Source: a virus (lineage: Duplodnaviria; Caudoviricetes). From it: a DNA stretch of 64,000 nt. A model generated the notes under the pieces. The model was given only the letters and a program-made list of their open reading frames with translations, did no database searches and was not told the origin of the DNA. Both the position numbers and the translations under genes were made by a program. Numbering within the stretch: position 1 is the stretch's first letter; every line of letters starts with the position of its first letter. Below, one piece after another: positions 8,622 through 51,245 of this stretch. The stretch is taken from IMG/VR virus record IMGVR_UViG_3300020050_009209. One strand, given 5' to 3'.

Positions 8622-9494
8622 ATGGTTTCCAACGAAATTAAGCAGCAAATCATCAGCGAGTACATCAAGACTGCGGCAGGTCGCGCAAAGCTTGCTGCCT
8701 CGATGATTCAACCCCTCCGCTCGCGTCGTGACTACACCGCAGTGGGTCGTAAGACCTTCTTGGTGGAGCAACTTCCTGACGGCGCACTTCCAATCTACGA
8801 CAAGGACCCGGACGTTACGGCCTACGTCGTTGGCGAGGAAGGCGAGAACATCCTTGCTATCCAGAAGCCACGCAGAGTGATCTTCCCTCTGTTCGAGGTT
8901 GCCTCGAACCCAGAGATCCCTCTCACCCAGATCAAGGAGCGTCGTTTCGACCTCATTGAGCGCTCGCAAGACCTTGCGAAGGCTCAGATCCAGGCAGCTG
9001 AGGACGAGCGTGTGTTCGCGGTTCTAGACAGCATTGCTGTCTCGGGCTTCGACACTCTAGCAGGGCAGACGAACCCCGACATCAACGTCGTGGCTCCAAT
9101 CTCCCCAAGCGTCCTAGCTGACGCGTTCGCTGAGGTAGAGCGTCACGACCTTCGGGTTGCTCGTATCTACATGAACGCAACCGACTACGCGGACATCCGT
9201 AAGTTCGGTCGCGACATCCTGGACATCGAGTCTCAAGCAGTCCTGCTTAAGACTGGTCTTCAGGCAACCCTCTGGGGCGCCCAGATCATCACAAGCCGCC
9301 TGGTTCCAGCCGGTTTCGTGTACATCTGCGCCGAGCCAGAGAACTTTGGACGTTTCCCCGTTCGTACAGAACTAACGGTTCTCAGTGCGGATGACGCGAA
9401 GGCCCGAACAATTGGGTTCAGTTGCTTTGAAAATATCGGCATTGGTGCCTTCAACCCTCGCGGCCTCACGCGTTTGGTTGTCACCCGAGTCTGA
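8622..9494 (+). CDS. Major capsid protein (HK97 fold)
   Basis: GRAKLAASMIQPLR, RKTFLVEQLPDGALPIYDKD, FEVASNPEI, QAAEDERVF and ATLWGAQII motifs; C-ending codon bias; followed by a strong terminator. Confidence 0.88.
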   Translation: MVSNEIKQQIISEYIKTAAGRAKLAASMIQPLRSRRDYTAVGRKTFLVEQLPDGALPIYDKDPDVTAYVVGEEGENILAIQKPRRVIFPLFEVASNPEIPLTQIKERRFDLIERSQDLAKAQIQAAEDERVFAVLDSIAVSGFDTLAGQTNPDINVVAPISPSVLADAFAEVERHDLRVARIYMNATDYADIRKFGRDILDIESQAVLLKTGLQATLWGAQIITSRLVPAGFVYICAEPENFGRFPVRTELTVLSADDAKARTIGFSCFENIGIGAFNPRGLTRLVVTRV

Positions 9495-9520: not shown

Positions 9521-9554
9521 AAAAGACCATCCTGGGAAACCAGGATGGTCTTTT
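9521..9554 (+). terminator. Intrinsic terminator after the capsid gene
   Basis: AAAAGACCATCCTGG-GAAA-CCAGGATGGTCTTTT perfect hairpin. Confidence 0.9.
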
Positions 9555-9610
9555 GTCATTTGGGGAATGCGTCACTCGGTCAACAGGGAAGAGACCGAAG
9601 TTAAAAGTTC

Positions 9611-9639
9611 TTGACAGACATACTCATGGGCTGTACGAT
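9611..9639 (+). promoter_or_regulatory. Sigma70-type promoter, predicted leaderless transcript
   Basis: TTGACA-N17-TACGAT; ATG 9646 lies 7 nt after the -10 element. Confidence 0.8.
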
Positions 9640-9645
9640 GAGGGA

Positions 9646-11910
9646 ATGATCTCAGAGCCCGAATTGCGACGTCTGTACTTGGAAGAGAAGCTAACAACAA
9701 AGGAAATTGGTCAACGTTTTGGGTTGACTCAGAGTCAAGCTAATCGCCTTCGGATTAGGTACTCCATCCCTACGATTAGTAAGTCGGATCGGCTTGACCT
9801 ACCTCCGCTGACAACAACTCAGAAAGAGGTGTTACTGGGTTCAATTTTTGGAGACGGTAGATTACTCTCAACAGGTTCGGTTACTGCTGGGTACTCGGAG
9901 TTTCACTCAGACAAGCAGTATGAATACCTTCAATGGAAAGCTAGTGTGTGGGGGGCCCATCTCTGTTCGGTACGTGACGGAAATAGCACAAAAAACGGAA
10001 AAACTTACCGTGGTCATATTCTACGTACCCATGGGTGCAGGGAGCTATTTCCCTATTGGAAGAAAGTTTACCCGTCTGGAGCAGGGTACAAGGTTTTCTC
10101 TAAGTTAGACTTGACTGAGTTTACCGCTCTTTCATTAGCTGTGTGGTACTTGGATGACGGTTGCAAGTCGAACAATGGATACATACGACTTGCTGTAACC
10201 CCCGACGAGGAGAGTCAGCAAATTGAGTTAACCTTGTTGCGAGGGTTTGGTTTAGACCCTGTTCTTCACTCAAAAGATGACCCTGCTATTTGGTTACATG
10301 ACCGAGCTAGTATGCTCAGGTTTCTAGACCTAGTAGCCGAGCATATTCCAGTCTCTATGGGGTATAAGTTAGAGTTAGTCCCTCGCTCTCGGGGGGTAGC
10401 CCCACGGGACCTGTTAACGGAAGAAGTCTTACGCGACTCGGTTGGAAAAGGTCGTGGGCTGGATTGGATGGTGCAGTCCACTGGAACTTCCACTACCTCT
10501 GTTCGACGTGCGCTGAAAAAATTCGACCTGACTCTCCCTGAGACCAAACAAGACACATGGGAAGAAGTAAAACAGCGTGTTCAGGTTGGTATTTCGGATG
10601 TCGAGTTAGTGGATGCTCTAGTCAGCCTCCCTCTCCCAAAAGCCCCATCTACCGAAGAGGCTCGTCGTGACTTCGAGAACCTATGTTCCAAGACTTTGGT
10701 CAAGATTGAGGATGGGCTTATTCATGGAGGGGGTAGGGTGGGGTTAACTACCTGTCAGGCGTACTTTCAGTATAGGTATGAAGCAACCAGAGAGAGTAAG
10801 CCTTCGGTTCGACAAGCTTGGTTTGACCCCATTGCAATAACAAAGGCTATCGCATTCCAACGTAAGGTGGGCGACCCTGTTTACCCTGCTAATGTATTCA
10901 GAGCCATCAAGGCCTTGAATGCAAGCCCGTCAAACTTTAGGCCTGCCGTTGCAAAGAAGTTGGTGGAAGAGTTCTCTCCCAAGGGGGGCACTGTTTTAGA
11001 CCCATGTGCTGGGTATGGGGGCCGTGCTGTTGGTGCTATTGCAGCGGGTCGCAAGTACGTTGGAGTAGACCCTCACCCCAATGCAGAGGATGCCTTTGCT
11101 GCTTTGAAGGAGTGTATTACCGGAGACCTTACTTTCTACAACCTTCCATTTGAAGAGGTTCAGTTAGGGGCACTTCAAGCAGACCTGATACTGACGAGTC
11201 CCCCTTACTTTTCTGTTGAACGTTACTCGAACAATCCAACCCAGAGTTGGGTGAGGTACCCAACCTTTGACTTGTGGGTAGACAGGTTTCTGAGGGTACT
11301 TCTTAGCAAGTCATTTAACCATCTGAAGGATGGTGGAGTGATGCTACTCAACGTGGCGGACTCCTACTTGAGTGGGAAGTTGATCCCTCTTGTTCAAACT
11401 TCGTTAGACGTTGCCCAGTCGGTGGGGTTTGTTCATGAGCAGACGCTGGGCATGTTGTTAGGTTCATTTGGTCGACGTAGGAAGGAAGAACCCGTTCTTG
11501 TACTTAGAAAGAACGGTGGTGAGTGTGTTGTTCCTTTCATCTCAGTACCTAAAGGACCCCTTCGTAGGGAGGTCTACAGCTCTACAAAAGTCTCTGAGGG
11601 GGAGTTACGAAACTTGTATGAGGTAGAGCTGCTAACTGACTCCGAAATCGGGCAAAAATTTGGGGTCTCCGATGTGCTTATCTCTCAACAGAGGAAGCGA
11701 TTCAACATCCAAAGTGTTAGCTTTAGGCAAAGAATCGAGAAACGTAATCCATCCCTGTTGCCATTAAGTGGTCTAACCGAGGAGAGGTTACGAGAGTTGT
11801 CTGTAACCTTAAGCGATGGGGACATCGCAAAGCTCTATGGGGTCTCTAAGCCAACAATACGTAACCGTAGGCATCAGTACAAGATACTGACAGAGAGGAA
11901 GTCTAAGTGA
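9646..11910 (+). CDS. LAGLIDADG endonuclease - amino-DNA methyltransferase fusion with HTH-like modules
   Basis: LLGSIFGDG and LAVWYLDDG; VLDPCAGYGGR (SAM binding); LTSPPYF (catalytic); LRRLY/LRNLY...EIGQ.FG HTH-like repeats at both ends. Confidence 0.88.
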   Translation: MISEPELRRLYLEEKLTTKEIGQRFGLTQSQANRLRIRYSIPTISKSDRLDLPPLTTTQKEVLLGSIFGDGRLLSTGSVTAGYSEFHSDKQYEYLQWKASVWGAHLCSVRDGNSTKNGKTYRGHILRTHGCRELFPYWKKVYPSGAGYKVFSKLDLTEFTALSLAVWYLDDGCKSNNGYIRLAVTPDEESQQIELTLLRGFGLDPVLHSKDDPAIWLHDRASMLRFLDLVAEHIPVSMGYKLELVPRSRGVAPRDLLTEEVLRDSVGKGRGLDWMVQSTGTSTTSVRRALKKFDLTLPETKQDTWEEVKQRVQVGISDVELVDALVSLPLPKAPSTEEARRDFENLCSKTLVKIEDGLIHGGGRVGLTTCQAYFQYRYEATRESKPSVRQAWFDPIAITKAIAFQRKVGDPVYPANVFRAIKALNASPSNFRPAVAKKLVEEFSPKGGTVLDPCAGYGGRAVGAIAAGRKYVGVDPHPNAEDAFAALKECITGDLTFYNLPFEEVQLGALQADLILTSPPYFSVERYSNNPTQSWVRYPTFDLWVDRFLRVLLSKSFNHLKDGGVMLLNVADSYLSGKLIPLVQTSLDVAQSVGFVHEQTLGMLLGSFGRRRKEEPVLVLRKNGGECVVPFISVPKGPLRREVYSSTKVSEGELRNLYEVELLTDSEIGQKFGVSDVLISQQRKRFNIQSVSFRQRIEKRNPSLLPLSGLTEERLRELSVTLSDGDIAKLYGVSKPTIRNRRHQYKILTERKSK

Positions 11911-11957
11911 CCCCAGGGATCTTCTTGTAGCCTACCTAACATATAGGAGAGTGACTC

Positions 11958-27819: not shown

Positions 27820-28461
27820 ATGCGAGTCACTTGGATCACGTACGGGCAACTCAACGAGATGCAACGCGAGGAAGTCTCTTTCCATGTGAAGGGCAAGCAT
27901 GTCCATGACCTTGGAGCTGGAAACGGCAACCTCTCTCTAGAGCTTTTGAAGCTCGGGGCAGCTAAGGTTACGGCAATTGACAAGCACCCAACCCTTGTGA
28001 CTACAGACCCTCGGCTGGAGGTCCTGGAAGGATCTTTCCAAGACTTTCAAGACTTGGCACCTGAGGTAGCGTTTGTCTCTTGGCCCTCAAACCATCCAAA
28101 TCCCTATCTTCGGCAAATTTGCCGTAGGGCTAAGGTTGTGATATACTTGGGGAAGAACACGGATGGTTCCGCATGTGGACAACCGGAGTTCTTTGACGAC
28201 CAACTCTATCGAGAGCTTCTTGCTTACCACAGCGATCGATTCAATACACTTGTAGTCGTGGGTGGGGTGCAAGATCTCAAACGCCCTCCGATGGGGGAGG
28301 AGCTAGCTGGGCTCAACCTTTACTCAGGTCCAGTAATGTACTACGACCAAGTAGAGAGGGGAAGAGAAGTGCCTGTAACTCATCGGAGCAATTACGATTT
28401 TCTTCCTACGCTCCACGTAGATCAAGTCAAGTGGGAGGACGAGTGTGAGGGGGGACAATGA
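27820..28461 (+). CDS. Class I SAM-dependent methyltransferase
   Basis: VHDLGAGNG...VTAIDK; preceded by GGTGTA-N10-ATG. Confidence 0.75.
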   Translation: MRVTWITYGQLNEMQREEVSFHVKGKHVHDLGAGNGNLSLELLKLGAAKVTAIDKHPTLVTTDPRLEVLEGSFQDFQDLAPEVAFVSWPSNHPNPYLRQICRRAKVVIYLGKNTDGSACGQPEFFDDQLYRELLAYHSDRFNTLVVVGGVQDLKRPPMGEELAGLNLYSGPVMYYDQVERGREVPVTHRSNYDFLPTLHVDQVKWEDECEGGQ

Positions 28462-35856: not shown

Positions 35857-35907
35857 GATCTTGAGGTAGGGTTGGGGTTCGATAAAGGTCTTATGCCCTG
35901 TTGTAGT

Positions 35908-36798
35908 ATGCCTCAAGAAAAACGAACATTCTCGAAGGAAGAGCTACAGTCTTTGCTGGATACCGACCCTAACATCACAATACAGAAAATGGGACTTATC
36001 CTGAGTTGTGGCAAGCAGACGTTGGCTAGAGAGTTGTCTAGGCATGGTCTTCGAACTAGAAAATGGGATGAACGCAAGCATACACTTGAGACTCGAACAA
36101 AGATTAGTCAGCAGCGCATTGAGAATGGCGTTGCTAAGGGTGAAAAAAATCCTAACTATGGCTCCAAGCCGAGACCATGGTTGGAGGGAGAAAATAGTTC
36201 TCTTCGTAAGTGGCATCAGGAGCACCCAGAGTTTGGAGTCAACCAACGTGGAGTTGAGAACCCCATACATAAGGTAAAGCATCTATACCAAGATCCTGCT
36301 TACGTTGCTAACATCACCCGTGGCATTCGAGCCCATGTCAAAAGTAAGACAGGTAGGAGCTACGAAGAGGTGTACGGGGCGAAGAAAGCCGCAGAGTATA
36401 AGGATAAGCTCAGGGCGGCCTCTCCAGGGAGGATGTCAAAGTTCAAGCGCAAGGTAACAAAGCCCGAGTTGATTGTCAGGGGTCTTCTTCAGGGGCTTGG
36501 AGCGTCGTTCGTGGAACAGGCCACCTTAGGTCCTTACACGGTGGATTTTCTTGTCCCTGATTTACGACTCGTGGTGCAGGCTGACGGGGATTATTGGCAT
36601 GCGAACCCAGAAGTGTACCCTAACGACGATAAACTATCCAAGTCTCAGCAGAAGCAGAGACGACTAGATGCCTCGTGTAACTCCCTCATTAAGAACAAGG
36701 GTTATGTGCTAATACGGTTGTGGGAAAGTGACTTACGTCAAAATCAGGAAAAGTGTGCAGAGATCCTATGTGAGGCTCTCAAAATGAGGAACAAATGA
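35908..36798 (+). mobile_element. Putative homing endonuclease, NUMOD3-like plus DUF559/Vsr-like domain
   Basis: KHTLETRTKIS, KGEKNPNYG; TKPE...YTVDF...VVQADGDYWH...LIRLWESD. Confidence 0.82.
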
Positions 36799-37811
36799 GT
36801 ACAGACCAGACATATTGTTATGGAGTTGGGATTGACTTGGGGACAATGAATATTTTGTCCGCTCGGCAGACAAAAGACAACAAGATCCATACCAAACGAG
36901 TAAGGGATGCGTTCATTGACTTGGACGGGGAGGCTAAAAAGGCCCTCAAAATGACGAAGGTCGAGTACGTCGAGAGGGATGGTCAGCTGATTGTCATTGG
37001 AGACTCAGCCTTGAACATGGCCAACCTCTTCAAGCGGGAGGTGCGTAGACCTCTCGCGAAAGGCGTTGTTGCAGCTGGGGAGTTCTTGGCTCAGGAAGTC
37101 TTGTCTTTGATGATCTTCCAAGTCCTACAGGAGCCCTTGGTCGAAGGGGAGCACTGTTATTACAGTATTCCTGCGGCACCTATTGACATCCCAGACCAGG
37201 ACGTCACTTACCACCGTGAGGTCTTCCGCAAGATCATCTCTGAGTTTGGTTACACCCCCCACCCGATGAACGAAGCTATGGCTATCATCTATAGCCAGTG
37301 TGCAGAAGAGCAGTTCTCTGGGCTATCGGTCAGCTTTGGCTCGGGCATGTGTAACGTAGCACTCGCCTATCAGACCATGATGGGTATGGAGTTCTCGATG
37401 GCTAGAGGTGGGGATTGGATTGATCTCCACGCGTCTAAAGCCACTGGAATGACAGCTTCCCGTATTTGCGCAATCAAAGAAAAAGGAGGTTTCAATCTTG
37501 CTAACCCACCGAAGAACAGTCGTGAGGCTGAAGCGATATCTCTCTACATTCGTAGTCTCATCAGCTACAGCCTGGAGAAGATCGCACACCAATTCCGTAG
37601 GGACGCAGGGAAGATGGAACTCTCGGACCCCATCCCATTCATAGTGTCAGGTGGGACCACGAAGGCGGAGGGCTTCATGGATATCTTCAAAGAGGAGTTT
37701 GAAGCCATGAAGAAGAAGGGTTTCCCAATCCAAATCTCCGAGGTTCGACAGGCGAAGGACCCTATGACGGCAGTAGCAGAAGGCCTTCTTGTACTAGCGA
37801 TGCAAGAGTGA
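36795..37811 (+). CDS. Actin-like ATPase (MreB/MamK/ParM superfamily)
   Basis: Phosphate-1 GIDLGTMN; RRPLAKG; connect-1 NEAMA; phosphate-2 SFGSGMCN; ARGGDWID; adenosine VSGGT; connect-2 AVAEG. Confidence 0.88.
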   Translation: MSTDQTYCYGVGIDLGTMNILSARQTKDNKIHTKRVRDAFIDLDGEAKKALKMTKVEYVERDGQLIVIGDSALNMANLFKREVRRPLAKGVVAAGEFLAQEVLSLMIFQVLQEPLVEGEHCYYSIPAAPIDIPDQDVTYHREVFRKIISEFGYTPHPMNEAMAIIYSQCAEEQFSGLSVSFGSGMCNVALAYQTMMGMEFSMARGGDWIDLHASKATGMTASRICAIKEKGGFNLANPPKNSREAEAISLYIRSLISYSLEKIAHQFRRDAGKMELSDPIPFIVSGGTTKAEGFMDIFKEEFEAMKKKGFPIQISEVRQAKDPMTAVAEGLLVLAMQE

Positions 37812-37818
37812 GGATTTC

Positions 37819-38637
37819 GTGAAACCTTGCAAAAAATGTGGAGTAACTGATCGGAACAGTCAGGGTGGTTGTCGCCCTTGTGCGAAGATTTACCTACAGG
37901 CCTATTACCAATCCCATAAAAGTCAGGCTAAGACTAACTCTCGCAATCGTACGCAGGGATTAGCAGATGGGACGCTTAAACGTCCTTCGCACCCATGCAC
38001 TAAGTGTGGTAGTTCTGAGCGAGGTAAATACGGGCACTGTCTGCCTTGTGGTGCCGCTCGTAACTTGAAACGCTACCATGCCGACAAGCCGAAGGCGAAG
38101 GCATACAAGCACGCTCAATACTTGAGTAACAAGGATAAGGTGAATGCGGACAGTAAAGCTTGGGCCAAAGCTAACCCGGACAAGCGAGATGATGCTACTG
38201 AGAGAAGACGCTTGAAGAAGTATGGGCTTACAGTTGAGCAACATCAAGCACTTTTTGAGATACAGGGTGGTCTCTGCCTTATTTGTAATGAGTCGTTTGG
38301 GAAACGAGTTCACATCGATCACGACCATAGTACAGGTCGTGTTCGGGGACTTTTGTGCCACACCTGCAACGTAGGTCTAGGTCACTTTAAGGATAGCTCA
38401 GCACTTTTACGTAAGGCTGCCGAGTACCTTGAGGGCCACCAACCAACGGATTTCGTAGTGCCCAGTCCGGTCATCAAGGTTTTTCAGCCCAGTGATGGTC
38501 GATACAAGATCACAGATGCAGTGCGTTCTCAGATTAAGGTCTTGCGGGAGCAAGGCCTTAGTTTAGGGGTCATCGCAAAAACGGTTGAACTATCGCGGTC
38601 TACGGTTCAGGTCATTCTCAAAGAAGTGAGACACTAA
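37819..38637 (+). mobile_element. Endonuclease VII-family homing endonuclease with C-terminal HTH
   Basis: KYGLT...QGGLCLIC...HIDHDHSTGRVRGLLCHTCNVGLGHFKDS. Confidence 0.9.
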
Positions 38638-41075: not shown

Positions 41076-44000
41076 ATGAGCTTTGGTCCACTAGGCACTT
41101 ACGTCCCACCTGGCGTATACTCGCGTACTCTAACCGAGGCGACCTTAGCTTCATTGATCCCAGGGCTGCGAATTCCAATGTTGGTTGGAATTGGCCAGGA
41201 GGAGCTGGAGCAGTACGACCTAGAGTTGGTGCGAGGTTCCTCGTCCACGCTAGATCAGCAGATCCTTAACGAGGATATCTCTGCTCGTTGGGTTGTAGAC
41301 GACACCAACCCTCAGAACTTGGTTCTGGGGGCAAACAATGGTACCCGAACTAGATTTGTAGTTCGTAACTTCCCTATCGTTGATGGGCAGGGTATCGGTC
41401 GACCAAGCAACGATGCTAGGGCTGTCTCGGTCACCGTGAATGGTGTTCCCGTTGCGATTGGAGCGGTACGAGGTACAACTGGAGAGGTCATCCTTCAGGT
41501 CCCTCCTCAGCCAACCGATAACGTACGAGTCACTTACTTCTTCCACCGGGGCGACACGGCCTTCACGGATAATGTCTCGGACCAAGTAACGAGCACAACG
41601 GCAGAGATTGTGGCCTCTGGGTACGAGCCCTTTTCGATTACGGCTGGCACGAACAACCTCCTCAAAATCAAGGTTGACGGACTAGAGTCCACGATTGCCT
41701 TCACGGATGCCGCAGCTGCTACAGTGTCTTCGTTGAAGAATCAGATTGACGCTGCTGGTATCTCGGGGCTAAGCACCCTGGTGTTCCAGGCAAATGACGG
41801 CACGCTCCACCTCCAGATGAACTCTGCAATCTCAATCGAGATTATGGATGGCAATGCGAACGGGACGCTCGGTCTCTTTGCAGGGCAGAAGTCTACGAGA
41901 AACACTGCCTTCCGCGTCTACCAGAGGCCTATCGTAGATGGGTCTTCTGGGGGAATCACCACCACTGACCCCTCCAAGGTAGTGGTCATGGTGAATGGAT
42001 CTCAGGTAATCCCATCCTCGGTAGATGGGACAAACGGTATCGTGAATCTTAGCTCTCCGCCCTCTGTTGGGGCGATTGTAGAGATCACGTACTACTCGAA
42101 TACTTGGCAGGACACGTTCGACTACCTACCTAACACGCTGGTAACGAACATTGTCCGTTGTGGTATTAGCCCAAATCGTTCGGACTACATCCAGAACCAG
42201 GACTTCGTAGTTTCCAACCCAAGTCCTGACGTCTCTATCATCCACTGGGGTACGAGCTACAGTGTAGCTTCATCGCTCCGCACTCCAGGGGCAGAGCCGC
42301 TAGATGACTCTCAGATTATCCCCACGCTTGTGGACGATAAGCTGTGGTTGGTGGAGTGTGAGCGCTACGTCGACACCTCTGTTGTACCCTCCAAGGTGTC
42401 TACGACAGACTTCGTCCTCCCTGTATCCCCTACCACGGGTAACGGGCGTAACACTCCGCTGACTCAGACTCTGTTCAACACGGCTACGAATGCTCGTAAC
42501 GACCTCATCACCAATCGTCCAGACTTGGTGGTGATTCGTGTTGGTCGAAGCTTGCGAGATGCTTTGGGTCGTCCCGCAGCAAAGGTCCTTGTTCTTGACG
42601 GGTCCACTCGCAAGGTCACCCTAAAGGACCCTGTTCCGCCAGACTTCAAGGCGTACGCTACGTACCACTACAACCGTATTGCAGATGACACCTATGTCAT
42701 CACAAACAAGACCAGTGGTCCTGCGGGCTCGGGTCAGTTTGAGGTGCTCAGCGCACTCTACAACACCAATGTGATGCAGGTGCGCTTCGGGTCCAAGGGT
42801 GGCGGTTTGGTGGACACTGTACAGTGGCCACGAGGAGCTGAGCAGGTTCCTGATGCCTTCCACTACGGCAAGACTCCAACCTCTGAGACGGTCACCGTTA
42901 CCTTTGGTTCGAGTGTAGCTACCAATGCTCTGTACACGAACAAGGGAGCACAGCCCTTCTCGTTCTACAGCCCATCCTCTGCCACTTGGCGCACAGCCCT
43001 GAACGGGGCTCCAACGGTGGTTACCAACCTAGCGATTGCCACTCGTGGTTACCTTGTGTCCAAGGAAATCACCTTGGTCTCAGGTGGGTTTGCCATCACA
43101 GCCGCGAACCAACTGCTAGAGCTTACTGTAGACGGAGTTAACCTAACGGTTACCCTCCCAGTAGGCGTAGCGGTTACCCCAGCTGCAATTGCTACGGCTG
43201 TCAATGCTGTAGTCGATGCAAACGCTTCGTTCATTGGTACAGCTCCAAACAACTTGTTTACAGCTATCCCAGGGGCAAGCGGAGCTACGAATTACTTTGT
43301 TCTACGTAGCTACTCAACCCCAGCGGCTCTTCCAGGTGGGTTTGATCACAAGTCCTATGCAGCTATCCGTCAAGGTACAGCAGAGACTACGCTAGGTCTC
43401 ACGACCTTCCAGCGTGCTGACGGTACACCTACCGCAGTCAACAAGCCTGCTACCCTTCTGGGTACGACGGCTCAACCGTTCATCATCACGGCTGGAGTGA
43501 ACGACCTATTCAAGGTCCGCATCAATGGGATTGACTTCACGGTCACTCTCAGCTCCGCCTCGACCACCTCTGCTCAGATTGTCTCAAACCTCAACGCCAT
43601 CATTGCCTCCCAAGGTACTGCAAGTGTCGGGACGCTAGACAACCTGAACAAGATCCGAATCACTTCAAACGTGAACTCGGATCAATCCACCGTTCTTATT
43701 CTGAACGGCACTGCAAACGCAACCCTTGGGTTCACAGAGGGTACGTTCGCCAGTCAGGTTCGAGTCAGTGTCCAAGAAGTCTCCAACAGACTGATGGATA
43801 CTCCTAACTTTGCCGTATCTACCTGGAGCCCTCCTACTGCATTCGCAGGAGCTGTGGCTTACCCAGCAACGATCAACGGTTCAGTTTACCTGACCATTGC
43901 ATCGCTCATCACTGGACTAACCTCTTCGGTTGCTTTCGTTACCGGGGCGAACTCAGCGTTCAACACGTTGAGTGGTACTCAGATTACTCCAGGTACCGAT

Positions 44001-45365
44001 GGGGATAACGGTGAGGCTACTTACGACAACTTCGTCGTAACATCCTCGAACCCCGTAGGTTCGGCTGGCACAGGTATCCCAGGGCAGACCTACACAGACG
44101 CTAGGACTGGACTCCGGTTTACTGTTCTACCTTCTACCGATGGGTCGTATGCAACTGGTGGGTTCTTCACCCTTGAGGTTTCGCCAACCTGGAAGGTGAA
44201 CTCTTCGGTACCTTACCTATCGGTTCCAGGTTTGGAGCTAATCGTCACCAATACGGTGAACGTTGGGATCAACGACACGGCTCAACTTCAGACCTTCAAC
44301 CCAAGTGGCGTTGAACCAAAGAACGGGGACTTCTACTCCATTAGCTACCGCTTCTTGAAGCAGGACTACACGACTCGAATCTTCCGTCAATTCAAGACGA
44401 TCGAAGCCAACTATGGCCGACTCTCTGCGGAGAATCGAGTCACCTTGGCTGCCTACCTGTCTATCCTTAACGGGGCAGTCCTGGTAGGGGTCAAGCAAAT
44501 CGAGAAGGTTCCAAACACAACCCAGGCTAGTGACCAGTCGTTCATCACGGCTCTTCAGGCGCTTAGTAACCCACTACCTGGAAACATCAAGCCGGACATC
44601 ATGATCCCGCTTACGTCCTCCACGGCAGTGTTCTCGTACCTCACGCAACACTGTGAGGTGGCGAGTAACATCCGTAATCAATCGGAGCGTATGGGCTTCA
44701 TTGGGTTTGCCTCCGGGACAACTCCAACAAACGCTCAGACCATTGCCAAGGCGTTGGCAAGTCAACGTATCGTCGCCTTCTACCCAGACTCGGCAGTTAT
44801 CACTCTCTCGAACGAGTTGGGTGAGAACTTCGAGACCCTGGTAGACGGTACGAACTTCGCAGCTGCCTTCGCAGGAGCTGTTGTAAGTCCTTCGATTGAC
44901 GTAGCGACTCCATACAGCCACCGTAGGGTCCAAGGCTTCACTCGCATTCCTAGGATTATGGATGCAGTGGAGATGAACCAGACGGCAACCGCAGGTGTAA
45001 CTATCCTGGAGGACCTGGATCCAGTCATCCGAGTTCGTCACGGTCTTACCACCAACATGAACTCGGTCTTGACTCGCCTACCTACGGTGACTCAGATCGC
45101 AGACCATGTGTCGCAGAACTCTAGGTCGGTTCTTGATGCCTTCGTGGGTACCAAGTTCCTCTCTAGTCGGGTGAATGAGGTTGAGGTCTCTATGACCTCG
45201 CTGTTCAAGTCTCTTATCCAGCAAGAGATCGTTTCGGCCTTCACAGGGATTGCAGCGGCAATCGACACTGAGGACCCAACGGTACTTAGAGCAGAAGCCT
45301 ACTACCAACCTATATTTCCACTTTTGTACCTCATGCTCACATTCAACCTTAGGGCGAGGATCTGA
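41076..45365 (+). CDS. Tail sheath protein (1429 aa, with large insertion domains)
   Basis: YVPPGVYSRT N-terminus; C-terminal IRVRHGLTT...IADHV...FVGTK...YQPIFPLLYL.LTF; RBS AGGAG. Confidence 0.92.
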   Translation: MSFGPLGTYVPPGVYSRTLTEATLASLIPGLRIPMLVGIGQEELEQYDLELVRGSSSTLDQQILNEDISARWVVDDTNPQNLVLGANNGTRTRFVVRNFPIVDGQGIGRPSNDARAVSVTVNGVPVAIGAVRGTTGEVILQVPPQPTDNVRVTYFFHRGDTAFTDNVSDQVTSTTAEIVASGYEPFSITAGTNNLLKIKVDGLESTIAFTDAAAATVSSLKNQIDAAGISGLSTLVFQANDGTLHLQMNSAISIEIMDGNANGTLGLFAGQKSTRNTAFRVYQRPIVDGSSGGITTTDPSKVVVMVNGSQVIPSSVDGTNGIVNLSSPPSVGAIVEITYYSNTWQDTFDYLPNTLVTNIVRCGISPNRSDYIQNQDFVVSNPSPDVSIIHWGTSYSVASSLRTPGAEPLDDSQIIPTLVDDKLWLVECERYVDTSVVPSKVSTTDFVLPVSPTTGNGRNTPLTQTLFNTATNARNDLITNRPDLVVIRVGRSLRDALGRPAAKVLVLDGSTRKVTLKDPVPPDFKAYATYHYNRIADDTYVITNKTSGPAGSGQFEVLSALYNTNVMQVRFGSKGGGLVDTVQWPRGAEQVPDAFHYGKTPTSETVTVTFGSSVATNALYTNKGAQPFSFYSPSSATWRTALNGAPTVVTNLAIATRGYLVSKEITLVSGGFAITAANQLLELTVDGVNLTVTLPVGVAVTPAAIATAVNAVVDANASFIGTAPNNLFTAIPGASGATNYFVLRSYSTPAALPGGFDHKSYAAIRQGTAETTLGLTTFQRADGTPTAVNKPATLLGTTAQPFIITAGVNDLFKVRINGIDFTVTLSSASTTSAQIVSNLNAIIASQGTASVGTLDNLNKIRITSNVNSDQSTVLILNGTANATLGFTEGTFASQVRVSVQEVSNRLMDTPNFAVSTWSPPTAFAGAVAYPATINGSVYLTIASLITGLTSSVAFVTGANSAFNTLSGTQITPGTDGDNGEATYDNFVVTSSNPVGSAGTGIPGQTYTDARTGLRFTVLPSTDGSYATGGFFTLEVSPTWKVNSSVPYLSVPGLELIVTNTVNVGINDTAQLQTFNPSGVEPKNGDFYSISYRFLKQDYTTRIFRQFKTIEANYGRLSAENRVTLAAYLSILNGAVLVGVKQIEKVPNTTQASDQSFITALQALSNPLPGNIKPDIMIPLTSSTAVFSYLTQHCEVASNIRNQSERMGFIGFASGTTPTNAQTIAKALASQRIVAFYPDSAVITLSNELGENFETLVDGTNFAAAFAGAVVSPSIDVATPYSHRRVQGFTRIPRIMDAVEMNQTATAGVTILEDLDPVIRVRHGLTTNMNSVLTRLPTVTQIADHVSQNSRSVLDAFVGTKFLSSRVNEVEVSMTSLFKSLIQQEIVSAFTGIAAAIDTEDPTVLRAEAYYQPIFPLLYLMLTFNLRARI

Positions 45366-45399: not shown

Positions 45400-45432
45400 G
45401 AAGACCCAACTCCCAAAAAGAGTTGGGTCTTC
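45400..45432 (+). terminator. Hairpin after the sheath gene
   Basis: GAAGACCCAACTC-N7-GAGTTGGGTCTTC, preceded by a smaller hairpin at about 45361-45384. Confidence 0.7.
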
Positions 45433-45476
45433 ACTATTGTCTGGTCAAGTGAGTCCATCTGGTGTACTACTTAGGT

Positions 45477-47735
45477 GTGGTCGCCAAGTCCAGTACGAGT
45501 ACCCAGGAGATTCTAGACTCTTTTCACGAAGATCACCCGCTTAAGTGGGTGGCCGTAAAGTTTAGAATCAGTCCGAATCGCCTTCGTGATGCATGGAAGA
45601 CTCATTACGGGGAAGAGGCGTTTGAGGAGAGAGTAAGAAAGCATCAAAAAGGTGCTCCACTAGGGTCTGCTGACCTTGCCATCGAGGTGTTTAATACAGA
45701 TGAGCCCTTTAAGGCTCTGGCAAAACGCCTTGGTATGAGCCCAAATACTCTCCGAAAGATTTGGGTAGCTCGTTTTGGAGCCGAAGCATTTCATGCTAGG
45801 GGTAAAGCGTCCCAAGCAAAAGGAGCGGTATCCTACGGGGTTAGGTCGACCGGACTCGCAAAAAAGAAGAACTTTGTCTATGAGCCGTGTTCAGGGTGCA
45901 ACACCCTTGTGTCTCTCACTAAAGTGCAGCTTGCAGCCCTAACCAAAGTAGTTTGTGAGACTTGCCTAGGTATGGATTCCAAGTGCCCTGTCTGCGGTCT
46001 AGGCTGCATGGGGGTAAAGGGAATCGCTATGCACTTTGCACAGGTAAAGGACGAGGCTCACATTAACTACCAAGAAGAAAAGGAAGAAGCGAAGTGGTCT
46101 GGCCTAGTCGAAGACAGACATTATGTGACTTGCAAGGAGTGTGGGTTTCGAGGGGTGGCTCTAAATAACCACTTAAAACTCCATGGTTTAGATGCAAGCA
46201 GCTACCGAACAAAGTTTAATGGTGCGCTAGTAACTTCGTCCTTCTCTGAGGAGAAGAGACTGAAGTCCTTAATGCCATCCGCGAGTCGAAGAGCTTACCA
46301 TTGGAGCCCAGAAGTTCTGAGGCAGTTCACAGATGAGAAAGGTCGTGTAATCGTTGCTGAGGCAGCCTTGGCATTAGGGGCTTCCCCACTTACCGTACTC
46401 CAGTACTGTCGGTCTTTGGAGCTACCTACACGTAATAAGTTGGCTTGGCAGAGAGTTGTTTTGGATCAAGCCAGTAAGGCGTTTGAGGCACCTTATGTGT
46501 GGGAGTGGTCTGACCCCAGAATAGTCAACCCAAGTACTGGGAGAGTTCTCAACTTTGACGGATACTTCCCTAGCCTAAATCTTATAGTTGAGGCTCATGG
46601 TGACCAGCACTATAGGTATGCTGAGGCTTGGCATGGCTCTATGGAGAATTTTCATGAGTTACGGGAGAGGGACCTACTCAAAAAGCAACGAGCAGAGGAG
46701 CTTGGGTTTCGGGTTTTGGTGGTGCGCCCAGTTGACCCAACGCATAGTGTAACTTTCTGGAAGAGACTTAGTCCTGTAGACCCTGTTGTTTTGGCGAATC
46801 AAATTGACCAGGTTGTAACCACCTTACGTCAAGGGGTATTTCCTATGCCCAAACCCCTTGACGCTGAGCTTAAGAAAGCCTTGACTAGACTTCAGGGTAC
46901 AAGTGTGGTTGTAAACTCGGACCTCGTTATTTACCCTTACTCTGTAAGAGGTACCTCTGCTTGTGCCTCATTTTTTCCCGCTAGGTACCAAGCTAAACAC
47001 AAGGCCGTAGATAAGAGTGTATGGGAAGCCTGGCATGATGACGACCTACTCAGGAAAGCTATCAAGTTGCAGTTGGACTCCGGGCATCCTACGACCCCTG
47101 AGAGGGTCTTAAAAGCTCTTGTAATGTATCATCGAACCCCGTCTGTGTTTCGTCCTGCCGTAGCAAAGTACGTCTATCAAACTTACGGGAACAAAGGGGT
47201 AGTCTGGGACCCGTGTGCTGGGTATGGAGGTAGACTTCTAGGGGCTCTTGCTGCTGGAGTCTCTACTTACATCGGAACGGACATTGAACCAGCTACAGTT
47301 GAAGGTAATCTTGCTATCGCAAAACACTTGGGGGTAAGTGGTTCCTACAAGGTTGAGCTTCAGGCAGCCGAGGAATTCGACCCTGGAGTACCTCTCGACC
47401 TCGTGTTCACCTCTCCTCCCTACTTTGACCTGGAGACTTACGGTAAAGCTTCTTTAAGGGCTAGTGTTGGGTATGGCTCGCCTCAGGGTTGGGTAGAGAA
47501 CTTCCTTCGTCCAGTGATGACCAAAGCTATGGAACGTTTGAAGCCAGGAGGGCACCTTGTGTTGAATTTACCATATAAGCCTGTACTTGGGACTCGATTG
47601 GATGTAGAAGCTACCCGAGAGGCTAAGGTGCTTGGGTTGAGAGAGTTGCCAACACTTTGGATGCCTATTCGTACCTTCAAAGGTACGATGAAGGGCGAGC
47701 CCATACTAGTTTGGCAGAAAGAGCAAATCCCATGA
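45477..47735 (+). CDS. HTH/Zn-finger PD-(D/E)XK endonuclease - amino-DNA methyltransferase fusion
   Basis: Two HTH-like repeats (SPN.LR..W...G.EAF); CxxC fingers; LNFDGYFPSLNLIVEAHGDQH; VWDPCAGYGGR; FTSPPYFDLE; GGTGTA-N10-GTG start. Confidence 0.88.
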   Translation: MVAKSSTSTQEILDSFHEDHPLKWVAVKFRISPNRLRDAWKTHYGEEAFEERVRKHQKGAPLGSADLAIEVFNTDEPFKALAKRLGMSPNTLRKIWVARFGAEAFHARGKASQAKGAVSYGVRSTGLAKKKNFVYEPCSGCNTLVSLTKVQLAALTKVVCETCLGMDSKCPVCGLGCMGVKGIAMHFAQVKDEAHINYQEEKEEAKWSGLVEDRHYVTCKECGFRGVALNNHLKLHGLDASSYRTKFNGALVTSSFSEEKRLKSLMPSASRRAYHWSPEVLRQFTDEKGRVIVAEAALALGASPLTVLQYCRSLELPTRNKLAWQRVVLDQASKAFEAPYVWEWSDPRIVNPSTGRVLNFDGYFPSLNLIVEAHGDQHYRYAEAWHGSMENFHELRERDLLKKQRAEELGFRVLVVRPVDPTHSVTFWKRLSPVDPVVLANQIDQVVTTLRQGVFPMPKPLDAELKKALTRLQGTSVVVNSDLVIYPYSVRGTSACASFFPARYQAKHKAVDKSVWEAWHDDDLLRKAIKLQLDSGHPTTPERVLKALVMYHRTPSVFRPAVAKYVYQTYGNKGVVWDPCAGYGGRLLGALAAGVSTYIGTDIEPATVEGNLAIAKHLGVSGSYKVELQAAEEFDPGVPLDLVFTSPPYFDLETYGKASLRASVGYGSPQGWVENFLRPVMTKAMERLKPGGHLVLNLPYKPVLGTRLDVEATREAKVLGLRELPTLWMPIRTFKGTMKGEPILVWQKEQIP

Positions 47736-47947
47736 CCTATATCCTAGTAGCCAGTGAGTTTCGTACTCCCCACATCAAGGGGCAGTGGTTGGTGTTTGAG
47801 GTCAATGTAAACCAGGAGGCACGAGAAGTGGCCTCTTGTCTTAGCTTAGAGGCTGGGAAAGCGGTTATGGCCCTTCTAGGGGTGCCGTCCTCTACTCCAT
47901 ACCATGAAAGCCCCTGGGGTGTTCCTGAGTCTACGAACTTCGTGTAG
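47732..47947 (+). CDS. Hypothetical protein
   Basis: ATGA overlap with the previous gene. Confidence 0.45.
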   Translation: MTYILVASEFRTPHIKGQWLVFEVNVNQEAREVASCLSLEAGKAVMALLGVPSSTPYHESPWGVPESTNFV

Positions 47948-48014: not shown

Positions 48015-51000
48015 ATGTACAAGTACGATTACTCCTCTGTCAATTCAGGCCTAAAGGCTGGATACCGACGCATTTTTGCAAGTGATGGTCTTGACGAGGA
48101 TGGTGAGCCTATTGGGGAGATTCAAGTCTCCGAGTACATAATCTTCCTACTTGCGGTAGATACCTACATTCGGTACCTTGAGGAAGCAACCTCCCAAGAG
48201 GACCCGCTGGATGAGGTAGTTGCAAAGGGGCTAAGACTTCTTCGTAACGCCGACTCTGAATTGGACTCGATTAGTTCATTCATGCAAGGGCATCTGGCCT
48301 CTGATACGCATAAGCGAATGCTTTTGAAGTATCTTGAGATCAAAGCTACGAACCCTCAAGGGGTGGGCCGTCGTGCTCTTGGTTTACGGACAATACTCTC
48401 ACGAGGTGGGGCCGCCACTATGAGAGGTGTGTTCCAATCTAACAAGGCATTGAAGCAAGTCCGTGAAGCCATGAGTGCGGCTCAAATGGACAACGCAGAT
48501 GCGGCTCTGGACCTTTTTGCTAAGCTTACGTTTCGTAACATGCGGCTTCGGGGTTGGATTGAGCTGGCGGCTAAAACAGCTATCTCAGGCCAACTTCCAG
48601 CCAATGTCGTGGAGGCTGGAGCCAAGGAAGCTCAAGACCAAAAGAGTAAGTTGCTGGAGGAGAACATCCAACAGATGGCAGCCTCTGGTGGAGACGCATC
48701 TAAGCAGGCCCAAGAAGCTCAGACTACGCAGCTTCTGAAGGTCCAAGATGATGCTACCGCAGCGGCTCGTCAGTCGATGGATCAAGCTGGGGAGCTTGAT
48801 GAGCCTCTTACAAAGTCTCAAGTCGTGGGCATTGCAGTAGCAGCAGCAGCAGCTGCTACGAGCGACCCCTCCAATCCACAAAACGTCCCAGAGGCTCTTC
48901 GTGGGCTTGACGATGAGCAAAGGGCCGCAGCTCTTACAGACGGTAGAGTTGGAGTTTTTGCCGGAGCTGGAGCGGGGAAGTCCAGTACCCTCGTAGCTCG
49001 TGTTGCCTACTTGGTACGAGATCGTAGAGTCAATCCGAGCCGAATTCTGGTGACGAGCTTCAACACCAAGGCAGCCTCCGAGTTGAAAGAGAAGATCGGA
49101 CGCTCGACGAGCGGGGACACCCTCCAGCAGATGTCTGTCGGAACGCTACACTCCATGGGCAAGAGGTTCGTCCTTGAATTCGGGACCCCCGAAGAAAAGT
49201 CCGCGTTGGAGTCCGGCTTCATGCAGGGTGGGGCCACGATCGCAAGAGCGGTCCAGAAGGTCTGGGAGGAGTGCTATGATAAGGACCCGCCGCCCAAGTT
49301 GAAGAATGCAACCATGGACCGGGCGAAGTGGTCGGGTAACGACATCACCCCGGAGATGGCTAAGGCCCAAGCCGTCTCCTCTGAGGAGATGAAGAGCGCC
49401 ATGTGGTACGAGATGTACGAAGGGCTCAAGGGTACAGCAGGTCCGGACTGGGAGCCCCCGTGTAAAGGCAGGGCGTTCGAGAGTTTCATGGGTCGATACC
49501 GACCGCGTGGAGATCGCCTCGGGGACTTCACCGATCAGCTAAAAATCTTCAGGGATATTCTGAAGCGTAACCCAGCTGTCAAGACCAAGGTCCAAGGGAT
49601 GTTCGACCACATCATTGTGGACGAAGCTCAAGATCGAAACACCGTGATGGCGGACATGATAGACCTCATGTCCCAGCATATTACGGACGGGGGAGATGGT
49701 AAGTCATGCTGGATTGTCGGAGACGACAAGCAAGCCATCAACTCCTTCCAAGGAGCCAAGGCGGCACTCTTCAAGGACCTCTTCCAGAAAGAGGGCTGGA
49801 AGACCCGTGTGATTCGCACGAACTATCGGTGCGAGCCTGAAATTGTCGACGCCGCAAACCGGCTCATCGGTCACAACGAGGGGAACGTTCCGATCCCGCA
49901 AGTGGCTGCTCCAGGACGTAAGCCTGGCTTGGGGAGCATCAAGGTTCAAGTGGCTGAGGATGAGGCGGACGCTGCACTCAGCACCATCGAAGAAATCAAG
50001 CAAGCACATGTCAACGGTGACGACCTTACGGACAACGCTGTCTTGTTTCGTACAAACAAGGAGATTCACTCCTACGAGACGGCCTGCATCATTCGCGGCA
50101 TCCCGTATGCCAGGAAGGGGGCTGGGTCTTTCCTGGGTTCGCCTGAGACAAAGGCGGTCTTGAGTTATGTCCAACTCGCAACTGGCTCGGACTTCGAGAA
50201 AATGCAGCAATCGTTGGCTCAAGTCGTTGACACCCCCAATCGTTTTTTCATCTCCGATAAGAAGCGAATCCCAGAGGCTGTGGATCAAGCGCTGGCCCAA
50301 TACGCTCGGGCCGAGGGGTTGAGCATCAAGGCGGTTAATCCACTTGAAGCTCTTGAGGACAGGAATTTCCTTCGTAACTTAGCAGTAAATCTTGGTCGGT
50401 TGACCAAGAGCGGCAAGGGCACCAAGTTCGAGGAGCAGCTTCGGGATCTTGCGGATTCGGTACGGGATCTCAGGATTAGTGCCTCGGACCCCGATTACAA
50501 GACGAAGGACCTGTTCGACGATATCTTGTCTGTCGAAGGAGTCGCCTACGTCAAGGGTTCCCGGCAACCACAGACCTTCCGTGAGAGCCTGAAGGCCGAC
50601 TTGCGGGACGCTCTTGGGGAAGACGACGAGGCCGTTGAATCCGATGAGGATGAGGAGGGCTCAACCAAGGGCCTTGGTAACGTTGCCTTTCTCTACAAGT
50701 TGGCCGAGCCAGATCCCACGGATGAAGATGACGCCATCACCCCGCCCACATCCCCGGATGGTTTCGCGGCAAAGATGTCCCGCTACACCGCCAAGATGCG
50801 TGACCTTCGGACGGACCTCGGTAAGTGGACGAAGGACCAGAACGCGCTCCCTCCAGAACAGCGTAAGAGGCCACCAGGAGTCTATCTCGGTACGGTCCAC
50901 TCAGTGAAGGGCGCGCAGTGGAAAACCACGTTCGTCCAGATGCCGGGTGGGAAGTTCCCCATGGAAATCAAGCCCAAGCCTGGTGAGCCTCCGCCAGACC

Positions 51001-51245
51001 CGGTCAAAGAGGCAGAGCGTTGGGAAGATGAGCGTCGTTTGGGGTACGTAGCCCTGACCCGAGCCGCCAAGAATCTTCGCATCGTTTGCCCCAAGGAAGT
51101 TGGGGGTAGATCGGCCGGAATTAGCCCCTTCGTCCGTGAAGCTGGCCTGGTGGCAGGGGAAAACATCTCGAAACCCGAAACTCCACCTCTCACCAAAGAA
51201 GCCGCAGAGTTGATCGACTTGTACCAGTTGGGGGGTGGGCTATGA
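48015..51245 (+). CDS. UvrD/Rep/PcrA superfamily 1 helicase with ~290-aa N-terminal extension
   Basis: LDDEQ, AGAGAGKS, TSFNTKAA, VDEAQD, VGDDKQAINSFQGA, NYR, TVHSVKGAQW, ERRLGYVALTRA. Confidence 0.95.
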   Translation: MYKYDYSSVNSGLKAGYRRIFASDGLDEDGEPIGEIQVSEYIIFLLAVDTYIRYLEEATSQEDPLDEVVAKGLRLLRNADSELDSISSFMQGHLASDTHKRMLLKYLEIKATNPQGVGRRALGLRTILSRGGAATMRGVFQSNKALKQVREAMSAAQMDNADAALDLFAKLTFRNMRLRGWIELAAKTAISGQLPANVVEAGAKEAQDQKSKLLEENIQQMAASGGDASKQAQEAQTTQLLKVQDDATAAARQSMDQAGELDEPLTKSQVVGIAVAAAAAATSDPSNPQNVPEALRGLDDEQRAAALTDGRVGVFAGAGAGKSSTLVARVAYLVRDRRVNPSRILVTSFNTKAASELKEKIGRSTSGDTLQQMSVGTLHSMGKRFVLEFGTPEEKSALESGFMQGGATIARAVQKVWEECYDKDPPPKLKNATMDRAKWSGNDITPEMAKAQAVSSEEMKSAMWYEMYEGLKGTAGPDWEPPCKGRAFESFMGRYRPRGDRLGDFTDQLKIFRDILKRNPAVKTKVQGMFDHIIVDEAQDRNTVMADMIDLMSQHITDGGDGKSCWIVGDDKQAINSFQGAKAALFKDLFQKEGWKTRVIRTNYRCEPEIVDAANRLIGHNEGNVPIPQVAAPGRKPGLGSIKVQVAEDEADAALSTIEEIKQAHVNGDDLTDNAVLFRTNKEIHSYETACIIRGIPYARKGAGSFLGSPETKAVLSYVQLATGSDFEKMQQSLAQVVDTPNRFFISDKKRIPEAVDQALAQYARAEGLSIKAVNPLEALEDRNFLRNLAVNLGRLTKSGKGTKFEEQLRDLADSVRDLRISASDPDYKTKDLFDDILSVEGVAYVKGSRQPQTFRESLKADLRDALGEDDEAVESDEDEEGSTKGLGNVAFLYKLAEPDPTDEDDAITPPTSPDGFAAKMSRYTAKMRDLRTDLGKWTKDQNALPPEQRKRPPGVYLGTVHSVKGAQWKTTFVQMPGGKFPMEIKPKPGEPPPDPVKEAERWEDERRLGYVALTRAAKNLRIVCPKEVGGRSAGISPFVREAGLVAGENISKPETPPLTKEAAELIDLYQLGGGL

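Follow-up and report, generated by a model that had tools for sequence, protein, structure and literature searches.

Why would a phage carry, directly behind a structural gene, a single open reading frame (ORF) that joins a nuclease to a methyltransferase (MTase)? The question is raised by a 64,000-nucleotide stretch, here called the window, of the virus record IMGVR_UViG_3300020050_009209 (Duplodnaviria; Caudoviricetes), in which the gene concerned, ORF A, occupies positions 45477..47735 of the plus strand. The window corresponds to bases 200736-264735 of a 379,936-bp IMG/VR record that carries direct terminal repeats; from this size and these repeats the source virus is a huge phage, and it is uncultured. 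The ORF A product combines sequence-reading modules (three helix-turn-helix, or HTH, motifs and Ros/MucR-type zinc fingers) with a Vsr-like nuclease and, at the C terminus, an amino-MTase that is related to DNA N4C/N6A methylases. A second gene of the window, ORF B (9646..11910, plus strand), pairs an MTase of the same family with a LAGLIDADG nuclease behind the capsid gene. The original prediction for this DNA had taken the two genes as members of a family of modular nuclease-MTase mobile elements. We propose that ORF A is probably a free-standing homing endonuclease gene that forms a mobile cassette of one gene, inserted exactly between a probable sheath gene's stop codon and the gene that follows.

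The slot behind the sheath-like gene is fixed and its occupant changes

Upstream of ORF A lies a gene for a 1429-amino-acid (aa) protein (41076..45365, plus strand), a probable giant tail sheath protein. The original prediction had named it outright as tail sheath. The language-model neighbours of the protein are sheath clusters, at 0.90-0.91, and sequence searches brought no confirmation, with no match in Pfam or the PDB; we treat the identity as only a lead and use the name sheath gene for convenience. The downstream anchor is a UvrD-type helicase gene (48015..51245, plus strand; PF00580 and PF13361), which lies directly 3' of the sheath gene where the slot is empty. A 96-aa ORF (47657-47947) shares its first 79 bp with the end of the cassette gene and takes up the space before the helicase; it had no family match and could belong to the cassette or be spurious.

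Scanning viral contigs with a single protein gave one locus, and alignment queries were required to collect more. We fetched sheath loci with the conserved C-terminal 500 aa of the sheath protein (222 viral contigs) and compared the best 80 of these, together with the best 80 of 538 contigs for the capsid slot, so that all slot frequencies given here are rough. Because the searches were limited to certain length windows, the homolog samples are biased, and proportions within them are also rough. Among the 80 sheath loci, the slot is empty with the UvrD helicase next in about 17, holds an HTH/zinc-finger/Vsr-like nuclease of 324-652 aa without an MTase in about 20, and holds the nuclease-MTase fusion in 5; the remaining loci have unrelated small genes there. 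When mapped on a tree of the sheath gene ends, these states change 35 times over 74 rows, and identical sheath ends are found with different occupants. The presence/absence variation that was expected at this locus is therefore real: the slot is polymorphic in the 80 relatives, and near-identical pairs differ by the cassette.

The clearest of these pairs, L073 and L071, are 99.8% identical over 6216 bp upstream, then differ by 2383 bp (the fusion gene) versus 61 bp, and then resume at 97.5% identity. All of the upstream mismatches (14/14) are confined to the final 80 bp, which end at the stop codon, and most are spaced by three bases; the encoded sheath protein ends are identical, which makes the mismatches synonymous. 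When we compared L032, which has the fusion, with L034, which has the nuclease only, 15 of the 17 mismatches fell in the last 100 bp of the sheath gene. By analogy with known elements, a clean insertion or deletion beside a recoded flank is the product expected of intronless homing of a free-standing endonuclease gene. This pattern would place the target in the 3' end of the sheath gene, and the last ~100 bp of 41076..45365 are likely the homing target or a co-converted region.

We picture the process as follows. In a mixed infection, the nuclease would cleave genomes that lack the cassette, within or close to the final ~100 bp of the sheath gene, and repair off a cassette-bearing genome would copy the cassette along with the synonymously recoded, cut-resistant gene end. 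The MTase would have been joined once to the Vsr-like nuclease lineage and carried along since, and the same MTase family would have been joined separately to a LAGLIDADG endonuclease in the equivalent slot after the capsid gene (9646-11910).

We identified about 45 full-length homologs of ORF A, at 35-92% identity and on contigs of up to 618 kb. In four relatives at 35-51% identity, the homolog again sits directly 3' of a giant sheath-like gene (1421-2488 aa), despite differing downstream genes. This persistence of the post-sheath position down to 35% identity could also be read as the mark of a domesticated, fixed phage gene that does not move, acting either as a late-gene regulator, for which HTH motifs and Ros/MucR fingers would be typical, or in a Dcm-Vsr-like repair system with a Vsr nickase at methylated sites, since the pairing of a Vsr structure with an MTase recalls the bacterial dcm-vsr pair. 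We consider such a gene very improbable. Most relatives have an empty or otherwise filled slot, and the cassette can be the difference between near-identical genomes; in addition, an amino-MTase with an SPPY motif makes no T:G mismatches of the type that Vsr repairs, and the LAGLIDADG nuclease of ORF B plays no part in repair.

The MTase-less Vsr-type genes of the sheath slot have an upstream feature of their own. In L017:7562-7612, L033:4459-4509, L057:7529-7575, L083:7559-7604 and a dozen other relatives, an upstream TTGAC(A) box opens a 15- to 21-bp perfect hairpin (z -4 to -7) whose 3' arm contains or abuts the ATG. A read-through sheath RNA would mask the start codon in that hairpin, and a transcript begun inside the hairpin would not. 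Such a start-masking hairpin recalls the control of T4 I-TevI and mobE. At the other side of the slot, in six relatives (L023, L026, L044, L049, L081 and L085) the match to UvrD-type helicase is broken into two pieces, separated by about 1 kb, within ORFs of 1250-1472 aa, which suggests an intein or another insert.

ORF A encodes sequence-reading modules and a Vsr-like nuclease

The frame of ORF A is open without interruption from 45462 to 47735, giving 757 aa from the first GTG and 752 aa from the GTG at 45477. The second GTG is the likelier start because the N termini of homologs align five residues further in; residue numbers below count from 45462. Pfam gave sub-threshold pieces only for ORF A. 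These include three HTH motifs (aa 17-53, 75-110 and 298-324), of which the two N-terminal ones (45510..45791; HTH_28, HTH_Tnp_1 and HTH_23) are kept in homologs. They are followed by a Cys/His zinc-finger region (45915..46220) with a Ros/MucR-type finger at aa 206-253 that falls just under the cutoff for PF05443 (3.5e-5; 24.3 bits versus 25.4) and to which Ros itself (PDB 2jsp) is a weak match. PHROGs tagged aa 360-421 as "HNH/homing endonuclease" families, and an NCBIfam search with ORF A gave nothing useful.

The nuclease domain (46434..46784) was defined from an alignment of 51 homologs, 35 from MTase-fused and 16 from MTase-less proteins, in which D366, E377, H383, D404 and K407 are invariant and H379 is nearly so. 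An AlphaFold2 (AF2) model of the domain, with a predicted local distance difference test (pLDDT) score of 89, matched the Vsr endonuclease 1cw0 (Z 9.7; root mean square deviation 2.5 over 105 residues), the phage homing endonuclease I-Bth0305I (3r3p; Z 8.7) and the DUF559 protein 3hrl (Z 7.9). On these structure matches, we assign the modeled domain to the Vsr-like PD-(D/E)XK enzymes of the type called EDxHD homing endonucleases. Its active-site residues appear to correspond to Vsr D51, H64 and H69, by motif reading rather than superposition. The architecture proposed before these searches, HTH and zinc fingers ahead of a PD-(D/E)XK nuclease, is upheld by the HTH and Ros/MucR matches and by the Vsr-like model.

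The MTase domain is intact and has one relative in the same genome

The C-terminal ~300 aa of ORF A (MTase domain, 46806..47732) align with the MTase part of ORF B at 35% identity over 304 aa (E 3e-42), and all of the shared motifs listed in the original prediction were found, including DPCAGYGGR, TSPPYF and PS.FRPAVAK. There is no third copy in the 379,936-bp record; ORF A and ORF B are the only two. The AF2 model of the MTase is confident (pLDDT 96.5). Motif I (DPCAGYGGR; aa 583-591, 47208-47234) comes before motif IV (TSPPYF; aa 650-655, 47409-47426), the reverse of the beta-class order (IV before I), and the D, G, G and R of motif I and the T, S, P, P and Y of motif IV are invariant in 69 sequences. 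PF01555 (N6_N4_Mtase) matches the motif IV part only of ORF A and does not pass the gathering cutoff (20.0 bits versus 26.7). In ORF B, PF01555 passes its cutoff (46.3 bits, 6.4e-12), and so does PF03161 (LAGLIDADG_2; 60.4 bits versus 25, 2.8e-16).

A profile of the MTase family matched the solved DNA N4/N6 MTases 2zie (7.8e-10) and 8s9n (7e-4) in two pieces of swapped order, which identifies the domain, at the level of sequence, as a permuted relative of the beta-class DNA amino-MTases. The Rossmann fold of the MTase reaches the C terminus at aa 757, so the chain has no target-recognition domain (TRD) after the MTase; its DNA-binding modules are N terminal. Among GenBank phages we found no close relative: tblastn matched the MTase part at only 23-34% identity and the nuclease part over short stretches.

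Homing endonucleases often decay once they are fixed, and ORF A might accordingly be a decaying fusion with one working half, either an MTase that uses a dead nuclease for DNA binding or a nuclease that uses a dead MTase as a targeting domain. The sub-cutoff PF01555 score and those relatives that retain the MTase after the capsid gene without a callable nuclease would fit such a history. We nevertheless find it hardly credible, since the catalytic residues are invariant in both the 51 nuclease domains and the 69 MTase domains and both models are confident.

One origin for the Vsr-MTase fusion and separate joinings of the MTase family to LAGLIDADG enzymes

A tree of the MTase domain (192 rows) places all Vsr-fused MTases in one clade (SH-aLRT 98), with the LAGLIDADG copy elsewhere in the tree. 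A tree of the nuclease domain separates MTase-fused from MTase-less forms on one branch (support 100). With a single split in both trees, the Vsr-MTase fusion has one origin, after which the fused gene spread among phage lineages; we reject a repeated origin of this fusion. LAGLIDADG-fused MTases are instead scattered in the MTase tree, with at least 5 changes forced by well-supported branches, and the family was thus joined to LAGLIDADG enzymes separately, as had been proposed when the two nuclease folds of the window were first recognized. The 145-row subclade that contains both window copies has 45 Vsr-fused and 37 LAGLIDADG-fused members, which bears out the expected enrichment for nuclease fusions.

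The MTases of ORF A and ORF B had also been described as paralogs. They do belong to the same family, but they are not sisters in the tree and lie in different clades, which rules out a recent duplication within this genome.

We read the contexts of four members of the family that were called as "HTH-only" or "solo" MTases: one had an overlapping HNH ORF, one abutted a LAGLIDADG_3 ORF, one had a separate LAGLIDADG_2 ORF, and one lay 3' of the capsid gene with an uncalled gap of 1 kb in between. A homing-endonuclease-associated repeat is present in one relative, and an outgroup solo MTase has a phage-like context with no nuclease recognized nearby. The same MTase clade is thus also fused or adjacent to LAGLIDADG and HNH nucleases.

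The capsid slot behaves in the same way

The second slot is anchored by the major capsid protein gene (8622..9494, plus strand; phrog_2522 at 1.4e-51), which is 90-100% identical in the best 80 of the 538 viral contig loci. ORF B follows it and encodes HTH motifs, the LAGLIDADG_2 nuclease, the same-family MTase and C-terminal HTHs; its frame is open from 9553, and it is listed as 9553/9646..11910. LAGLIDADG-MTase homologs were directly 3' of the 290-aa capsid gene in every context read. At the 80 capsid loci, we counted a LAGLIDADG gene without MTase in about 20, the fusion in about 11, an MTase with an unrecognized N-terminal half in 3 and both kinds in tandem in 2.

A direct comparison for ORF B is given by L094, in which the flank on one side is 97.1% and that on the other 98.4% identical to the window. 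Between them, window 9577-11913 is swapped for a 1-kb LAGLIDADG-only gene whose protein is 31% identical, which sets the limits of the ORF B cassette at ~9577-11913. The capsid proteins of the two genomes are identical, and synonymous changes cluster in the last ~150 bp of the capsid gene.

Other capsid loci hold further arrangements. Two have a tandem pair 3' of the capsid gene, a LAGLIDADG-only gene (322 aa) and then a LAGLIDADG-MTase fusion of 767-768 aa (L113:5519-8886 and L114:5956-9331). In L115:6041-8629, L122:5983-8271 and L120:2368-4647, the same MTase family is fused to a 500- to 650-aa N-terminal half, which gave no Pfam match and may be a third type of partner. The closest relative of the LAGLIDADG-linked MTase of the window (L092:3315-6437, 3' of the capsid gene) is split into a 239-aa LAGLIDADG ORF, an uncalled gap of ~970 bp and a 478-aa MTase ORF and looks like a broken fusion.

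A different explanation for ORF A is a phage-borne single-chain restriction-modification (R-M) enzyme of Type IIC/IIG kind used as a weapon. Its MTase would mark a short motif in the phage's own DNA and its nuclease would degrade unmethylated DNA of the host or of rival phages at many sites, mobility being secondary. A nuclease and an MTase on one chain with both catalytic motif sets invariant, the pairing of one MTase clade with at least three nuclease types, and the integrity of both domains across deep divergence are all in keeping with it. The slots argue otherwise: position tracks the nuclease type and not the MTase, the sheath slot taking Vsr forms and the capsid slot LAGLIDADG forms, and both nucleases also occur in these slots without an MTase, more often than with one. 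The restriction of synonymous mismatches to the flanking gene end points to one specific target, the number of HTH and zinc-finger modules suggests that the recognition site is long, and there is no TRD C terminal to the MTase. We regard the weapon as improbable. Slot polymorphism, nuclease enrichment and separate joinings instead support the idea of a modular family of mobile elements with which this work began.

What the MTase might do

Within the homing endonuclease reading, we tentatively see the MTase as a useful passenger that would methylate the phage genome against host restriction and in this way keep the cassette from being lost. Such cargo would mean that a selfish gene pays its way, spreading anti-restriction methylation through the phage population. 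It is rather unlikely that the MTase protects the carrier genome from its own nuclease, at the homing site or at secondary sites, which would be a new immunity strategy for homing elements. Other roles take up the remaining share.

An unlikely but broader reading is that the fusions are homing endonucleases with their own cognate methylase, in which shared DNA-reading modules would steer both the cutting of naive genomes and the protective methylation of the carrier's own, that is, an R-M system that homes. If so, homing endonuclease genes and R-M systems would have a living link in these fusions, put together more than once from a single MTase family and three or more nuclease folds.

Several points weigh against a homing endonuclease gene that carries a DNA MTase as a passenger. 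No near-identical cassette-free relative of the window genome was found in the collections, and the same gene also occurs in L011, its closest relative. Both the clean indel and the recoding are seen in relatives and not in the window genome, so the mechanism at this locus rests on analogy. Occupied and empty alleles differ synonymously at the gene end, which could confer immunity without methylation; since MTase-less nucleases also thrive in the same slots, protection of the homing site by the MTase is not required. Fold searches with the MTase model gave Rossmann methylases of similar score, with tRNA m2G methylases nearest (Z ~18). DNA is the likely substrate of the MTase, with RNA a lesser possibility given these neighbors. 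Finally, both domains are intact down to 35% identity, which would seldom be expected of a purely selfish gene and may point to some benefit for the phage. This integrity and the pairing of the MTase family with several nuclease folds suggest a functional tie and argue against pure hitchhiking.

Upstream signals and neighboring genes

Hairpins precede both fusions, as originally described. A terminator-like hairpin with a 13-bp stem and a 7-nt loop lies 3' of the sheath gene (45400..45432, plus strand), and a 14-bp inverted repeat lies 3' of the capsid gene (9523..9555, plus strand) and shows one compensatory A-T to G-C change relative to L094. A (G/C)TGTA-N10-start pattern had also been noted ahead of both genes. 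The strings are present, at 45462-45479 and 9631-9648, and in both the (G/C)TGTA is the junction of the spacer and the -10 element of a promoter-like sequence. For ORF B this sequence is a sigma-70-like promoter, TTGACA-17-TACGAT (9611..9639, plus strand; 10/12 consensus matches), which includes CTGTA and whose last base is 6 nt 5' of the ATG at 9646. For ORF A a consensus scan found no sigma-70 promoter; a weak promoter-like string, TGGTCA-17-TACTAC (45442..45470, plus strand), which the scan did not accept, was read by eye and includes GTGTA, its last base lying 6 nt 5' of the GTG at 45477. We counted this pattern 17 times in the window versus 9.4 +/- 3.3 expected, and it stands in front of 3 of the 57 long ORFs. 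With this modest enrichment and so few ORFs, we dropped it as a common control element. The sole other long ORF with GTGTA-N10-ATG in front (27820-28458, 213 aa) has weak Rossmann MTase matches (FtsJ-like, 9.5e-5).

All large ORFs of the window are on the plus strand. Further nuclease genes of the window include an intein at 3545-6502, within a 985-aa ORF, with Hint domains and a LAGLIDADG_3 endonuclease at ~aa 103-534. An actin-like gene (36795-37811), whose homolog in relatives matches PF25216 (Volactin), is flanked on one side by a free-standing Vsr/DUF559-type nuclease gene (35872-36798; PF03852, 1.5e-8) and on the other by an Endonuclease VII gene with an HTH (37819-38637; PF02945, 7.9e-25).

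Comparison with known systems

Homing endonucleases and R-M systems are the two classic kinds of selfish nuclease gene, and they share folds but are usually regarded as distinct life styles. Each of the three kinds compared below is already known: homing endonuclease genes that stand free, the EDxHD family, and R-M enzymes on a single chain. A literature search found no description of homing endonuclease-MTase fusions in the papers it covered, which is not proof of novelty. Here, one MTase family is linked to Vsr-like, LAGLIDADG and HNH homing nucleases in a widespread clade of uncultured huge phages, the capsid gene of which matches 538 viral contigs. Whatever the role of the MTase, these would be compact, apparently active enzymes that join long-site recognition, a nuclease and an MTase, and their specificities could be read with standard assays.

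Among free-standing homing endonucleases, ORF A resembles the Seg and Mob genes of T-even phages in being a single gene between conserved genes, in its presence or absence in close relatives, in a probable target in the neighboring conserved gene and in the flank carried along. The T4 Seg and Mob enzymes are GIY-YIG or HNH nucleases and, unlike ORF A, have no modification domain.

The closest enzyme is I-Bth0305I (PDB 3r3p), of the EDxHD (Vsr-like) homing endonuclease family (Taylor et al. 2011, PMC3239194; review, PMC3384342). Both are phage borne and place a Vsr-like PD-(D/E)XK core behind separate DNA-binding modules, and the EDxHD family includes free-standing genes. ORF A has the active-site string D..E.HG.QH..D..K, likened to EDxHD by motif and not by residue-by-residue mapping. 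I-Bth0305I is encoded in an intron in recA and has no MTase, whereas ORF A is free standing after a structural gene and has zinc fingers and a terminal MTase.

Like the Type IIC/IIG R-M enzymes (MmeI, BpuSI and Eco57I), ORF A has an N-terminal PD-(D/E)XK nuclease and an amino-MTase on one polypeptide. Those enzymes are bacterial defense genes with a gamma-class MTase followed by a TRD, whereas ORF A sits in a phage structural module, has N-terminal recognition modules and no TRD, and behaves as a site-specific mobile cassette. ORF B resembles the monomeric LAGLIDADG_2 endonucleases of the I-SceI type in its PF03161 match and homing-type slot and differs from them in its fused MTase and extra HTH modules. 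LAGLIDADG enzymes are not known among R-M systems. In the genome studied here, one MTase family serves two nuclease folds.

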